Origin: Dehalococcoidia bacterium
GTDB lineage: Bacteria > Chloroflexota > Dehalococcoidia > UBA2979
Direction of reading: 5' to 3'
Assembly (NCBI GenBank): GCA_963667465.2
Contig: CAXXDN010000002.1
Location: 160,001-224,000 of the forward strand
DNA length: 64,000 nt
Position numbers and translations under genes: made by a program. The notes below the pieces were generated by a model. The model had not been told where the DNA came from and made no database searches. It was given only the letters and a program-made list of their open reading frames with translations. Position 1 is the first letter of the stretch. Every line of letters starts with the position of its first letter. Below are positions 35,736 to 51,593 of this stretch, piece by piece.

Positions 35736-36950
35736 CTACAGCGTGACGCCGAGCGCGTCGGCGACCGTGCCCATGTCCTTGTCGCCGCGCCCGCTGAGGT
35801 TGACGAGCACCAGCGCGTCCTCGCCCAGCTCCGGCAGCAGCTTCGCGAGGTGGGCGAGCGCGTGCGCGGGCTCCAGCGCGGGGATGATGCCCTCGGTCTC
35901 GCTCAACAGGCGGAAGGCGGCGAGCGCCTCCTCGTCGGTGACGGAGACGTACTCGGCGCGCTCGCTGACCTTCAGCCAGGAGTGCTCCGGCCCCACGCCG
36001 GGGTAGTCGAGGCCGGCCGAGATCGAGTGTGCCTCCGTGACTTGCCCGTGTGCGTCCTGCAGCAGGTAGGAGCGCGAGCCGTGCAGGACGCCCGGCTCGC
36101 CCGCCGCCAGCGGGGCCGCGTGCCGCCCGTCCAGCCCCTCGCCCGCGGCCTCGACGCCGACCAGCCGCACGGGGTCGTCGACGAAGGCGTGGAACAGCCC
36201 GATCGCGTTGGAGCCGCCGCCGACGCAGGCGAGGGCGACCGTGGGCAGCCGCCCCTCTGCTTCGAGGATCTGCGTGCGCGCCTCGTGGCCGATCACGGCC
36301 TGGAAGTCACGGACCAGCAGCGGGTAGGGGTGCGGCCCGACGGCCGAGCCGAGCAGGTAATGCGTGGTGCGCACGTTGGTGACCCAGTCGCGGATCGCCT
36401 CGTTGATCGCGTCCTTGAGCGTGCGCGAACCGGACTCGACGGTGCGTACCTCGGCGCCGAGCAACTTCATGCGGAAGACGTTGAGCGCCTGCCGCCGCAC
36501 GTCCTCCGCGCCCATGTAGACGACGCATTCGAGGCCGAGCAGGGCGCACGCGGTGGCGGTCGCGACGCCGTGCTGCCCGGCGCCGGTCTCGGCGACGATG
36601 CGTGGCTTGCCCATGCGCTGCGCGAGCAGGCCCTGCGCCAGCGCGGCGTTGATCTTGTGCGCGCCGGTGTGCGTCAGGTCCTCGCGCTTGAGGTAGACGA
36701 TCGGCGCGCCCTCCCCGGCGATCCGCTGCGCGAGGCGGTCGGCGCGCGTGATCGGCGTGGGCCGGCCGACGAAGTCACGAAGCAGCCCGTCAAGCTCCTC
36801 GCCGAAGGCCGGATCCTCGCGTGCGGCCGCGTAGGCCTCCTCCAGCTCGGCGAGCGCCGGCATCAGGGTCTCGGGTACGTAGCGGCCGCCGAAGCCGCCG
36901 AAGTAGCCGCGCTCGTCGGGCAGGGCGGAGCGATCCGTGGTGGTGGTCAT
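35736..36950 (-). CDS. trpB: Tryptophan synthase beta
   Basis: [47 protein letters not shown]. Confidence 0.98.
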
Positions 36951-37112
36951 GCGGGCGCCCGACTCTGCGGGTTGGCGATGGCCGGCGGCTCGTTTGCAGC
37001 CCGAAGCGTCTCCACGTCGCACCCTCTTCGGCTCGCGCGCGGTGCTGTCGATGATACCGCCGACTCGCTCCAGGGGCTGCGGCGAGGACCGTGCGGCCGG
37101 GTGGTCAGGGGG

Positions 37113-48645: not shown

Positions 48646-49551
48646 TCAGGCCTCCTCGGCTTCGTCGGGATCCGCCTGCGAGGCGGCAAGCATCTTCTCG
48701 AGTTGTTGCGTGTGTGAGCGGTCGTGGGCCGCGATGCGGGCGATCCGGTCGCCGACGCGCACCGCGCCGCGATCGGCGTGGTCGCCGTAGGCGTCCAACT
48801 CGTCCTGCCCGAGCCCCTCGAGCCAGGCGAGCGTCTCCGCTCGCAGCGCGTCGAGGCGTTCGAGTTCCGTGCGGTCGCTGGCCGGACGCGCGCGGCCGGC
48901 GCGCTCCGCCTCGCCCTGCGCCGGGTTGAACGGCCGCCAGGTATGGCCGGGCGTCTCGAGCAACTCGCGCGCCTCGGAGGCGTAGTAGGCCTCGACTGTC
49001 GCGCAGTGCGTCAGCAAGTCCACCGGCGCCCAGTCGCCATCGAGGCTGACATCGCGCCAGGGCTCATCGAACGCAAGGTAGGCGGCGCGCAGCGCGTCGC
49101 GCGCCGTGATCAGCTCGGCCGTCAGATCCTCGGTGCTGGCGCTCTTCGGCAGCGCGCTCGCGTCCATCGGCAGGCCGCCCAGCCACTCGCGCACGCCCTC
49201 GGCGAGATCGATGCCGGCAGCCCCGCCGGGGGGCGCCCAGGCAGCATCGAGGAAGTCGGCGGGCGCATACTGCGGGTCGCCGCTCCAGGAGCTGCAGAGG
49301 AAGACGTTGGCGATTGCCATCGGCAGCGCGATCGAGTCGCTGAACTCCCTCCGGTCGGGCGACAGGCGGAGGCGGTCGCCGAGCAGCCGCGCCAGCGCCT
49401 GCTCGGCGGTCTCGTCGTCGGCGACGGGTTCCGAGGGCAGCGTCCAGCGGCTGCCCGCGCCGCTGCGCTCCTCGCGGGCGTGGCGCACGAGCAGCACGCG
49501 GCCGTCGCTGCGGCGCAGCGCGGCGGAGGCGACAAGCGGTTTGGGGTCCAT
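48646..49551 (-). CDS. Degenerate Nudix-fold + DinB-family fusion
   Basis: GRVLLVR..WTLP..E; C-domain W...DLLTH...AHDRSH..Q. Confidence 0.75.
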   Translation of the reverse strand: MDPKPLVASAALRRSDGRVLLVRHAREERSGAGSRWTLPSEPVADDETAEQALARLLGDRLRLSPDRREFSDSIALPMAIANVFLCSSWSGDPQYAPADFLDAAWAPPGGAAGIDLAEGVREWLGGLPMDASALPKSASTEDLTAELITARDALRAAYLAFDEPWRDVSLDGDWAPVDLLTHCATVEAYYASEARELLETPGHTWRPFNPAQGEAERAGRARPASDRTELERLDALRAETLAWLEGLGQDELDAYGDHADRGAVRVGDRIARIAAHDRSHTQQLEKMLAASQADPDEAEEA

Positions 49552-51041
49552 CAGTAGCCCAGGCTTCCCGAGGGCGTGCTGCCGCCCGCCCGCTCCTCGG
49601 CGTCGTCGATCGCAGCCATCAACGCGCGCGCCTTGTGCTGTGTCTCCTCGAACTCTCGCTGCGGATCGGAGTCGTAGACGATGCCGCCGCCGGCCTGCAC
49701 GTAGGCGACGCCGTCGCGCAGCAGCACGGTGCGAATCGTGATGCAGGTCTCGACGTTGCCTGAGAGGTCGAAGAAGCCGACCGCCCCCGCGTAGGGGCCG
49801 CGCTGGTCCGGCTCCAGCTCGGCGATGATCTCCATCGCGCGGATCTTGGGCGCGCCGGAGACCGTGCCCGCCGGGAAGGCCGAGCGCAGCGCGTCGTAGC
49901 CGCTCAGGCCCTCGCGCAGCTCGCCCTGCACGTGGCTCACGAGGTGCATGACGTGCGAGTAGAACTCGAGGTCGAAGCTCTGCGTCACCTCGACCGAGCC
50001 CGACTTCGAGACGCGCCCCACGTCGTTGCGCCCGAGGTCGAGCAGCATCACGTGCTCGGCGATCTCCTTCGGGTCGTTGCGCAGCTCCTCAGCCAGCCGC
50101 TCGTCCTCGGCGGGCGAACCGCTGCGCGGCCGGGTCCCGGCGATCGGGTGCACGTCGACGACGCCGTCCTCGACCTTCACCAGCAGCTCCGGCGAGGCGC
50201 CGATGATGGCGATGTCGTCGAACTGCAGGAGGTACATGTAGGGCGAGGGGTTGACCACGCGCAGCGAGCGGTACAGCTCGACCGGGTGCACGCCCGTCTC
50301 GCGCGAGAAGCGCTGCGCGATCACCGCCTGGATGATGTCGCCCTCGACGATGTACTGCTTCGTGCGTTCCACGGCCCGCAGGTAGTCCGCGTGCGCCCAG
50401 TTGGACCCGATCGGCTGCCTGGTCGGCCCGTCGAGCGGGGTGTAGGGCAGCACGGCGAGCGGGGCCTCGAGGCGCTCGGTGAGTCGCTCGATCTTCGCCT
50501 CCGCCGCGTCGTAGGCGGCGTCGACGTCACCATCGAGGCGGGCGAGCGAGATCACCTTGATCGTGTGCAGCACGTGGTCGAAGACCAGCAGCGTGTCGGT
50601 GAACATCAGCCATGACTCGGGCACGCCCAGCGCGTCCGTTTCCGGGCGCGGGATGCGCTCGAAGTGCCCGACGGTCTCGTAGCCGAGGTAGCCGACGGCG
50701 CCGCCGTGGAAGCGTGGCAGCCCCGGCGCCGGGACCGGCCGCAGCCCGGCGATCTCTTCCTCGATCACGCTGAGGGGGTCGCCGTCCTCGTGGTTGAGGG
50801 CGCTCACGCGGTACGGCTCGGTGCCGATGTAGGAGTAGCGCCCCATGCGCTCGCCGCCCTCGACGGATTCGAGCAGGAAGGAGTACTTGCCGCGGGCGAC
50901 CTTGAGGTAGGCGGAAACGGGCGTCTCCAGGTCGGCGCGCACCTCGCGGTAGATCGCCGCGATGTTGCCCTCCCCGGCGGCCGCGAGGCGGCGCAGTTCC
51001 TCGCGGCTGGGTGTGGTGCGGGTTGCGGTCGGTGTCGTCAT
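49551..51041 (-). CDS. trpE: Anthranilate synthase component I
   Basis: DLETPVS, LLESVEGG, NPSPYM, PIAGTRPR, EHVMLLDLGRND, GTVSGAPKIRAM. Confidence 0.97.
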   Translation of the reverse strand: MTTPTATRTTPSREELRRLAAAGEGNIAAIYREVRADLETPVSAYLKVARGKYSFLLESVEGGERMGRYSYIGTEPYRVSALNHEDGDPLSVIEEEIAGLRPVPAPGLPRFHGGAVGYLGYETVGHFERIPRPETDALGVPESWLMFTDTLLVFDHVLHTIKVISLARLDGDVDAAYDAAEAKIERLTERLEAPLAVLPYTPLDGPTRQPIGSNWAHADYLRAVERTKQYIVEGDIIQAVIAQRFSRETGVHPVELYRSLRVVNPSPYMYLLQFDDIAIIGASPELLVKVEDGVVDVHPIAGTRPRSGSPAEDERLAEELRNDPKEIAEHVMLLDLGRNDVGRVSKSGSVEVTQSFDLEFYSHVMHLVSHVQGELREGLSGYDALRSAFPAGTVSGAPKIRAMEIIAELEPDQRGPYAGAVGFFDLSGNVETCITIRTVLLRDGVAYVQAGGGIVYDSDPQREFEETQHKARALMAAIDDAEERAGGSTPSGSLGY

Positions 51042-51172
51042 CGTCGTGGTCCTGTTCGTGCGTTGCAGCGTTCCGTGCGTGCGGCGTACGGCCACCACCA
51101 GGCTCCGCCCCGGACGCCACAGAGGCGCGGCGCGGGCTGGTGCTGGTACGGCGCAGGGCTGCTGCGATGCAC
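51038..51172 (-). CDS. Putative trp leader peptide, 44 aa with WWW
   Basis: GAGGAGG SD (51186-51180), GTG 51172, TGG TGG TGG (51100-51092), TGA overlapping the trpE ATG. Confidence 0.75.
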   Translation of the reverse strand: MHRSSPAPYQHQPAPRLCGVRGGAWWWPYAARTERCNARTGPRR

Positions 51173-51215
51173 GATCGGTCCTCCTCGTTCCTCCGGGCAA
51201 CGTCCTCATGGGACG

Positions 51216-51246
51216 AAAAAGGACCACCGCCCTGGGGCGATGGTCC
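51216..51246 (-). terminator. T-box intrinsic terminator
   Basis: GGACCATCGCCC-ca-GGGCGGTGGTCC followed by TTTTT. Confidence 0.9.
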
Positions 51247-51557
51247 TCGCGGCGCCACCCAAGTTCCGCGCGCCGGCAGGCCTCGAGGCCCGCGGCTCGC
51301 GCTCATTCAAGGCACGGCCACCCGGCTGCCCCGGACGCGGGGCGTGGCGGCGATACCCTGGGCCTGGATAACGGCGCCCACACCGTCGGCGCCTACTTGC
51401 CCCACCATCGGGTCGATTGGGGACGTTCGGGCCGAGACTCCCGGGTCCATTCCGCCGCTGCTGTCGGGCGCCGGGCTTCCACCTTGCCCCGGCTCTCTGG
51501 GCCCCGCGTGGCGGCGTACTACTCCCGTTCCGCGTCGCTCTCTGTACGCTGCGACCG
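51216..51557 (-). ncRNA. T-box riboswitch, Trp specifier
   Basis: GGGAGTAGTA, CAGAGAG, GGTGGAA, specifier GAA-TGG, S-turn GAAC/AGTA, CCGTTA, T-box AACTTGGGTGGCGCCGCG (51265-51248). Confidence 0.93.
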
Positions 51558-51563
51558 TGATCG

Positions 51564-51593
51564 AGGCTACGGCTGGCCGCGGCGGAGTGTCAA
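51564..51593 (-). promoter_or_regulatory. sigma70-type promoter of the trp leader
   Basis: TTGACA-18 nt-TAGCCT immediately upstream of the T-box. Confidence 0.8.

Follow-up and report, generated by a model that had tools for sequence, protein, structure and literature searches.

A putative tryptophan-codon leader between a T-box riboswitch and trpE in Dehalococcoidia

We analyzed a 64,000-nucleotide (nt) stretch of a Dehalococcoidia bacterium genome (assembly GCA_963667465.2, contig CAXXDN010000002.1, positions 160,001 to 224,000; here called the window), in which trpE, the gene for anthranilate synthase component I, is preceded by a T-box riboswitch and then by a short leader open reading frame (ORF) that carries three tandem Trp codons and ends on the trpE start codon. 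The whole array of promoter, T-box, leader, and trpE is carried on the minus strand (window positions 49551-51593). We consider it about an even bet (probability of roughly 0.5) that this array senses the charging of tRNA-Trp in two tiers and that the second tier acts at the level of trpE translation, in the manner of the rtpLP-rtpA system of Bacillus subtilis. The motifs of the T-box make it nearly certain that a Trp-specific riboswitch controls this trp operon, and the conservation of the leader among relatives makes it very probable that this ORF is a real Trp-sensing element.

The leader ORF and its conservation in relatives

An earlier reading of the letters of the window (the original prediction) had proposed an unannotated leader ORF with a GAGGAGG Shine-Dalgarno (SD) sequence, a GTG start at 51172, a run of three Trp codons (WWW), and an ATGA overlap with trpE, and we found all of these on the minus strand (Table 1). 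The leader SD is stronger than the SD of trpE. Taken from this genome alone, the leader ORF is not significant, because TGGTGGTGG is frequent (72 copies genome-wide versus ∼36 expected from composition) and open frames occur everywhere at the genome's guanine-plus-cytosine (GC) content of 70.7%. The case therefore rests on conservation in relatives, the nearest of which are uncultured Chloroflexota metagenome-assembled genomes (MAGs) of the class Dehalococcoidia.

A Trp-cluster ORF was found at or near the trpE start in 33 of the 43 distinct trpE loci that make up our Dehalococcoidia set, where such an ORF was scored if it ended between -60 and +45 of the trpE start. Two of the 10 negatives (L044 and L047) were counted as such because the script placed the trpE start wrongly; L044 and L023 are one region, and by eye L047 shows a leader start of the MSIF type. 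In four leaderless loci that belong to the class but lie outside the window's family (L026, L029, L031, and L033), the T-box core is 48 to 106 nt from trpE. The remaining negatives are L051, which has a T-box only, L042, which has the order T-box-trpS-trpE without a Trp leader, and L045 and L055, in which no T-box motif was found. Among control loci from other phyla (TrpE identity of ≤51%), 0 of 51 had a Trp-cluster ORF overlapping the trpE start, and the sole control with a Trp-pair ORF anywhere in the scanned range (L077) has its stop 107 nt upstream of trpE.

Within the window's own family, T-box and leader occur together in 21 of 24 genomes, and the other 3 of the 24 have trpE with neither element. 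At one locus of this family (L117, from genome G024), which has neither T-box nor leader, the sequence upstream of trpE is AT-rich, and its relatives have ∼70% GC. A DNA search of 40 related genomes matched the full 571-nt query in 10 genomes of the genus, and more distant genomes matched the T-box part alone (query positions 1-385). The ∼130-nt leader ORF is an addition in the window's family and its near relatives. Although the rest of their sequence cannot be aligned, the distant loci retain an SD, a start codon (GTG or ATG), Trp codons clustered in frame, and a stop that falls on the trpE ATG. The original prediction had set conservation of the SD, the in-frame Trp codons, and the ATGA overlap in relatives as its own refutation test, and all three were found to be conserved.

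The Trp codons are specific to the leader frame. We fixed this frame a priori by the ATGA overlap and counted TGG over a constant 134-nt interval at the 31 loci, of 38 distinct ones, that have the ATGA. The leader frame held 79 TGG codons, and the other two frames together held 28. When each lineage was represented by a single locus (10 loci), the counts were 30 versus 16 (binomial P = 9.8e-6); because the loci are related, such P values overstate the evidence. Indels inside the ORF were likewise mostly in frame (3, 12, 15, and 15 nt); a fifth, a 1-nt deletion in L016, shifts the stop to +38.

The anatomy of the leader was measured at 32 loci (L049 was mis-framed and dropped). The ORF is 33 to 54 codons long and holds 2 to 5 in-frame TGG codons at all 32 loci, the first of them 36 to 72 nt from the leader start. 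No locus has its last TGG closer to the trpE AUG than 49 nt, and 17 of the 32 have it at exactly -53. Of the leaders, 25 stop at +1 and 30 stop within -14 to +14. By eye, an SD of the GGAG/GAGG type precedes the leader start in 27 of the 32, and relatives carry a GGAG/AGGAG-type trpE SD at the same place as the window, inside the last leader codons. The peptide itself is not conserved: 8 leader peptides of 8 lineages matched 0 families in Pfam and NCBIfam at E values of up to 10, as is usual for regulatory leaders. Gene callers omit this conserved regulatory ORF.

In two relatives (L023 and L059), a gene separates the two elements. The order there is T-box, trpS, leader, trpE, and the leader lies ∼1.1 kb from the T-box; the L023 trpS, at about 1631-2818, is a tryptophanyl-tRNA synthetase gene (Pfam PF00579). 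Because the leader stays with trpE when trpS intervenes, it must act at trpE itself. In these two relatives and in L042, the operon under the control of the Trp T-box is trpS-trpE.

A few other short WWW frames adjoin long ORFs in the genome, and by inspection no Trp link is apparent for any of them. They comprise a repeat-rich ORF, a frame within a larger gene, and a frame that belongs to a repeated element. In a repeated element (contigs C1 and C2 of genome G000, >10 copies, e.g., C1:748933), TGGTGGTGG stands in an identical 23-codon frame beside an ORF of ∼306 codons; the element looks like an insertion sequence and accounts for many of the genomic WWW frames.

The T-box riboswitch and its promoter

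A full T-box with a UGG specifier and a terminator had been predicted upstream of the leader. All hallmark motifs, the Trp specificity, and the terminator were found, with the qualification to "full" that the match stays below the Rfam curated threshold. A default-threshold Rfam scan of the window gave zero matches. In E-value mode, below the gathering score of 93 bits, RF00230 matched in two pieces only, one of 41.1 bits over the 5' domain and a second, partial match of 14.5 bits (51284-51233) that spans the T-box sequence. The genome has three T-box candidates, at 51216-51541 of the window (minus strand), at 1501-1800 of L002, and at 1501-1611 of L003, and their scores range from 22 to 41 bits (27 and 22 for the two outside the window). 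Since all three score so low, we conclude that RF00230 under-scores this high-GC lineage with its inserted helices, and the curated cutoff would miss every T-box candidate of this genome. The L002 T-box has an Ile specifier and precedes an IleRS-like ORF, and the L003 T-box precedes a ThrRS-like ORF; no cognate-codon leader was found at either.

The evidence for a Trp-specific T-box comes from the model alignment and from relatives. The model alignment contains the stem I and specifier hallmarks AGUA, AGAGA, GGUGNRA, and GAA-UGG-A, and it places the UGG specifier where it had been predicted; the same alignment column reads AUC in the Ile T-box of L002. GAATGG and the T-box core are invariant in 22 of 22 aligned relatives from many lineages, and the AG bulge, distal loop, AGUA, F-box, and terminator are invariant or nearly so in the same alignment. 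In addition, the UGGC bulge is complementary to the G-CCA 3' end of tRNA-Trp, whose gene (anticodon CCA) is the only one in the genome.

A comparative fold found compensatory changes in 16 of 60 predicted pairs, located in the stem I base, stem II, the helix preceding the T-box sequence, and the terminator. One helix with such changes lies at alignment columns 363-371/408-416, and the stem I base pair adjoining the specifier loop covaries (CG in 9 sequences and GC in 4). The terminator in relatives shows both one- and two-sided changes. The terminator stem with its TTTTT was the sole terminator-like site that a scan found in the region, and in the model alignment its 5' arm (51246-51235) shares positions with the antiterminator's 3' half, by which the two structures are predicted to be mutually exclusive. 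A single-sequence fold of the T-box was no better than shuffles (z score of -0.5); thermodynamic fold predictions are weak evidence at high GC.

The predicted promoter, TTGACA-18-TAGCCT, is present and is conserved despite its rejection by a generic sigma-70 scan, which failed it because the -10 hexamer agrees at just 3 of 6 positions. All 11 clade-1 loci keep TTGACA-N17/18-TAGCCT, as do all 7 clade-2 loci (one with TTGACG) and several other lineages, and the -35 hexamer by itself is kept in many lineages besides the two clades. Variants of the -35 hexamer among relatives are TTGACG and TTGACT, once each, and the -10 hexamer of some lineages is TACCGT instead of TAGCCT.

Public RNA data contain traces of this region. 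Sponge and marine metatranscriptome contigs match the conserved 5' domain of the T-box (51336-51543) with 88 to 100% likeness, and several related strains are their probable source. Each of 13 RNA runs contained only a small share of the region, and contigs of four of them (X1, X2, X4, and X6) were mapped; these spanned just 51336-51543 and the edge of trpE, with none over the leader, and, being contigs, show neither ends nor levels.

A proposed two-tier mechanism

Sequence and comparison demonstrate the parts of the first putative tier. The T-box would be transcribed from the conserved TTGACA/TAGCCT promoter, uncharged tRNA-Trp would pair through its CCA anticodon with the UGG specifier and through its G-CCA end with the UGGC bulge, and the antiterminator stabilized by the tRNA would let RNA polymerase pass the terminator.

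What follows the T-box is not a classical attenuator. The absence of a terminator after the Trp codons, as had been predicted, was borne out: from the first Trp codon to trpE +40, 0 of the 32 loci contain four or more consecutive T residues. T runs of ≥3 occur in most of these loci just upstream of the leader, at the position of the T-box terminator. Attenuation of the classical trpL type is thus excluded, because there is no intrinsic terminator after the Trp codons.

For the second tier, the ORF and its Trp codons are conserved, and from this conservation we infer that the leader is translated. The strong SD would load ribosomes onto a leader of ∼40 codons, with its 2 to 5 Trp codons mid-ORF, whose final codons cross the trpE SD and whose UGA overlaps the trpE AUG. 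When Trp-tRNA is charged, ribosomes would cross and terminate on the trpE initiation region, and independent binding of 30S subunits there would be limited. When Trp-tRNA is scarce, the lead ribosome would stall on the Trp codons, ≥49 nt short of the AUG, and its front edge would come no nearer to the AUG than ∼38 nt; ribosomes would then cease to traverse the leader, and the C/A-rich trpE initiation region would be free. Such a second tier could silence transcripts that had already been made once Trp returns, and Rho may amplify the effect through polarity on untranslated trpE. That this relief of occlusion is the physical mechanism by which the leader works seems to us a tentative proposition with slightly less than even odds.

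The direction of the leader's effect on trpE is suggested by analogy. We adopted an inhibitory sign for completed leader translation because it is homeostatic and because this is the sign reported for rtpLP. The original prediction had called the leader "translationally coupled" to trpE, which implies a positive link; the physiologically sensible reading would be the opposite, in which completed leader translation limits trpE initiation.

Three other modes of action were considered. An SD-sequestering helix like those of ermC or the poly-Cys leaders is unsupported, since masking the ribosome footprint had no effect and no covarying helix was found between the Trp-codon tract and the SD. An arrest at the stop codon like that of TnaC was rejected: the Trp codons lie anywhere from 10 to 30 codons before the stop, and it is their spacing from the trpE AUG that is conserved. 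Finally, the TGG run could mark GTG starts of a longer TrpE, and this was discarded because L020 has no upstream start in the trpE frame and TrpE homology begins at or after the ATG.

Weighing the alternatives

Several points weigh against inhibition by completed leader translation, or against selection on the leader. ATGA overlaps usually give positive coupling by reinitiation, and the same operon has a start/stop overlap at the junction of trpE with the next gene; completed leader translation could raise TrpE rather than lower it. Common ancestry, rather than selection, could account for the conserved -53 spacing. The leader stop departs from the trpE start at L024 (-45) and at L016 (+38), and these two exceptions could be MAG errors. 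In addition, short ORFs that overlap the next gene by ATGA and have no Trp codons arise by chance, before trpB in the window and before trpE at L026.

The alternative that survives best, which we consider unlikely, is that leader ribosomes end at the ATGA and reinitiate on trpE, boosting TrpE, with the Trp codons acting as a throttle at very low Trp-tRNA. The stop/start overlap of most leaders (25 of 32) is the standard arrangement for such coupling and is used again between trpE and its downstream neighbor, the leader SD outranks the trpE SD in strength, and reinitiation after leader ORFs, which stalling lowers, has been proposed as a general enhancer (PMC4833913). Against it, the sign would be anti-homeostatic, with less TrpE made exactly when the T-box signals starvation. 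It also leaves unexplained why 2 to 5 in-frame codons for the rarest amino acid are kept across lineages and why their distance from the AUG is constantly at least 49 nt.

Structure-based translational attenuation, in which a helix hides the trpE SD and AUG until a ribosome stalled on the Trp codons, or queued behind them, melts it, is a rather improbable explanation. It has experimental precedent in a terminator-less upstream ORF (uORF) with a duplex between codon tract and SD (bioRxiv 10.1101/834739). In clade 1 only, a helix was predicted between the leader start region and a segment overlapping the trpE SD, and masking the leader start raised the mean predicted accessibility of the trpE ribosome-binding site (RBS) from 0.43 to 0.51. 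Masking the footprint of a ribosome on the Trp codons, the fold check that had been suggested with the original prediction, changed nothing (0.43 versus 0.43 across the 32 loci; Wilcoxon P = 0.42). Clade-wise RNAalifold of the leader-trpE region found compensatory changes in 2 of 42 clade-1 pairs and 0 of 40 clade-2 pairs and gave no supported structure; the clade-1 helix is weakened in the window sequence and was not found in clade 2. Single-sequence folds of the leader were also no better than shuffles (z score of -1.0).

It is more doubtful still that control is primarily by Rho, with leader translation gating the access of Rho to a C-rich site at the trpE start and polarity as the output. 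The genome encodes Rho, around the trpE start the mRNA is rich in C and A with little G or U (C-rich and G-poor over ∼90 nt), there is no intrinsic terminator, and a Rho route has been proposed for terminator-less cys leaders in Actinobacteria (PMC1262725). As a primary mechanism, however, Rho would have the wrong sign, since an upstream stall would expose the C-rich stretch in starvation and a completing ribosome would cover it in sufficiency, and it fits better as an amplifier of translational control.

Least probable of all is that the leader has no sensing role and reflects a tolerated GC-rich open frame, an RNA-level effect of the TGG codons, or a stalled ribosome that stabilizes the mRNA, for although open frames and copies of TGGTGGTGG are common in this genome, Trp-less overlapping ORFs do arise by chance, and the peptide is unconserved and belongs to no family, such an account is disfavored by frame-specific Trp clustering in at least 10 lineages with unalignable leaders, by in-frame indels, by the conserved SD and start, by the 0 of 51 controls, and by a T-box and leader that are present or missing together within the family.

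Comparison with known systems

Known solutions to trp control include TrpR with trpL, TRAP with anti-TRAP, the T-box, and tandem T-boxes, the last of which, in bacilli, are another way to read tRNA-Trp twice. The trp operon is the textbook case of RNA-based regulation, and each known solution has taught a principle. The leader peptide of rtpLP is ∼10 codons long.

The closest parallel is rtpLP-rtpA, which the original prediction had invoked, accurately, as a T-box followed by a leader with three Trp codons, and for which complete leader translation is reported to prevent translation of the downstream gene (PMC2311275, PMC10327191). As there, a Trp T-box acts on transcription and is followed by a short ORF with three Trp codons before the next gene, and the leader ends at the initiation region of that gene (within -14 to +14 of the trpE AUG at 30 of 32 loci). 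Unlike in rtpLP-rtpA, the target is the biosynthetic trpE rather than the anti-TRAP regulator, the leader is 33 to 54 codons long, the Trp codons lie mid-ORF at least 49 nt from the target AUG, and the stop overlaps the target start codon. The host is a member of the Chloroflexota with no TRAP in the architecture, and the mechanism of rtpLP-rtpA may be shared.

Attenuators of the trpL type (Escherichia coli, Corynebacterium, and Streptomyces) have a leader ORF with double or triple UGG upstream of trpE, at which stalled ribosomes report on charged tRNA-Trp (PMC1262725). The present leader resembles them as a short ORF with tandem cognate codons before the operon, although its translation is suggested by conservation. 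It differs in that those systems have GC-rich terminators with poly-U and alternative antiterminators, whereas U tracts were found here at 0 of 32 loci, and in that the ORF overlaps trpE and has a T-box upstream. The poly-Cys uORFs of mycobacteria have no terminator and use a series of cognate codons to control translation initiation at the following gene, and they exert polarity on the operon (bioRxiv 10.1101/834739). The Trp leader is likewise a terminator-less uORF with a run of cognate codons, which by analogy may control initiation. The poly-Cys uORFs are leaderless and have pairing between the Cys tract and the SD, in contrast to the SD-bearing uORF here, for which no duplex of tract and SD is supported.

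T-boxes directly on trpE, as in this window, have already been published for Dehalococcoides (PMC2494555). None of the parts of the array is new in itself: T-boxes on trpE, leaders with Trp codons, and the tandem of rtpLP have all been described. What appears to be new, in the literature searched, is the combination of T-box and leader on trpE and its terminator-less, start-overlapping geometry. The original prediction knew of no report of such a layout, and in full-text searches, which did not extend to supplementary tables, a T-box plus a Trp-codon leader on trpE was likewise not found. The combination of T-box and Trp leader has been known until now just for the anti-TRAP gene of one Bacillus lineage, and if the more novel reading given below is true, this would be the first such tandem to act directly on an amino acid biosynthetic operon.

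We raise the possibility, which we hold at somewhat under even odds, that the array is an undescribed regulatory module, in which a Trp uORF of 33 to 54 codons gates trpE purely by ribosome traffic, with neither terminator nor helix, behind a Trp T-box, so that uncharged and then charged tRNA would be read on one mRNA. The array would be modular, as it stands also at a trpS/trpE junction, and would owe its origin to an insertion where an ancestral T-box met trpE, within a Dehalococcoidia family associated with sponges and marine settings. The leader's unusual geometry (a long ORF, Trp codons mid-ORF, a stop on the start codon, and no terminator) makes coupling versus occlusion directly testable.

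Layout of the locus

The features of the array are listed in Table 1.

TABLE 1 Positions of the regulatory features and genes of the trpE array within the window
Feature	Position	Strand	Basis or remark
Guanylate-kinase gene stop TAG	51606-51604	minus	Pfam; precedes trp promoter
-35 hexamer TTGACA	51588..51593	minus	Read from sequence
-10 hexamer TAGCCT (TANNNT type), 18-nt spacer after -35	51564..51569	minus	Sequence and conservation
T-box 5' domain: stem I (K-turn, AG bulge, distal loop, specifier loop), stem II, F-box	51353..51541	minus	RF00230, 41.1 bits, E=1.5e-7
Specifier codon UGG (Trp) in GAA-UGG-A	51447..51449	minus	RF00230 model alignment
Extra lineage-specific helices between F-box and T-box sequence	51285..51352	minus	Gap separating the two Rfam matches
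T-box sequence AACTT GGGTGGCGCC GCGAG	51246..51265	minus	Rfam partial match, 14.5 bits
T-box core GGGTGGCGCCGCG	51260-51248	minus	Bulge UGGC at 51257-51254
Intrinsic terminator, ∼12-bp GC-rich stem and TTTTT	51216..51246	minus	Sequence and terminator scan
Leader SD GAGGAGG, 7 nt upstream of GTG	51180..51186	minus	Sequence
Leader ORF, 44 codons and stop, GTG start	51038..51172	minus	ORF read from sequence, absent from gene calls
Three tandem Trp codons TGGTGGTGG (WWW)	51092..51100	minus	Last codon 53 nt before trpE AUG
trpE SD AGGA, 8 nt before ATG, within leader ORF	51050..51053	minus	Sequence
ATGA overlap: trpE ATG 51041-39, leader TGA 51040-38	51038..51041	minus	Sequence
trpE (anthranilate synthase component I, 496 amino acids)	49551..51041	minus	Pfam Chorismate_bind and Anth_synt_I_N

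Based on Pfam matches to the downstream genes, the operon has the order trpE-nudix/dinB-trpG-trpD-trpC-trpF. The gene between trpE and trpG is a fusion of Nudix and DinB_2 domains (48646-49551, minus strand) whose start overlaps the trpE stop, and from sequence the same arrangement is apparently also present in the relative L059.

The trpB gene (∼35736-36951, minus strand) lies ∼8 kb away from trpEGDCF, and neither a T-box nor a Trp leader was found upstream of it in the window. A 22-codon ORF with an SD (∼36948-37016, minus strand) does precede it; the TGA of this ORF overlaps the trpB ATG, it has zero Trp codons, and it is either a chance ORF or a general coupling uORF. A comparable case was seen at L026, where a 17-codon ORF without Trp codons stands directly after the T-box terminator and overlaps the trpE start by ATGA; this ORF could be due to chance or could represent a precursor state of the Trp leader.

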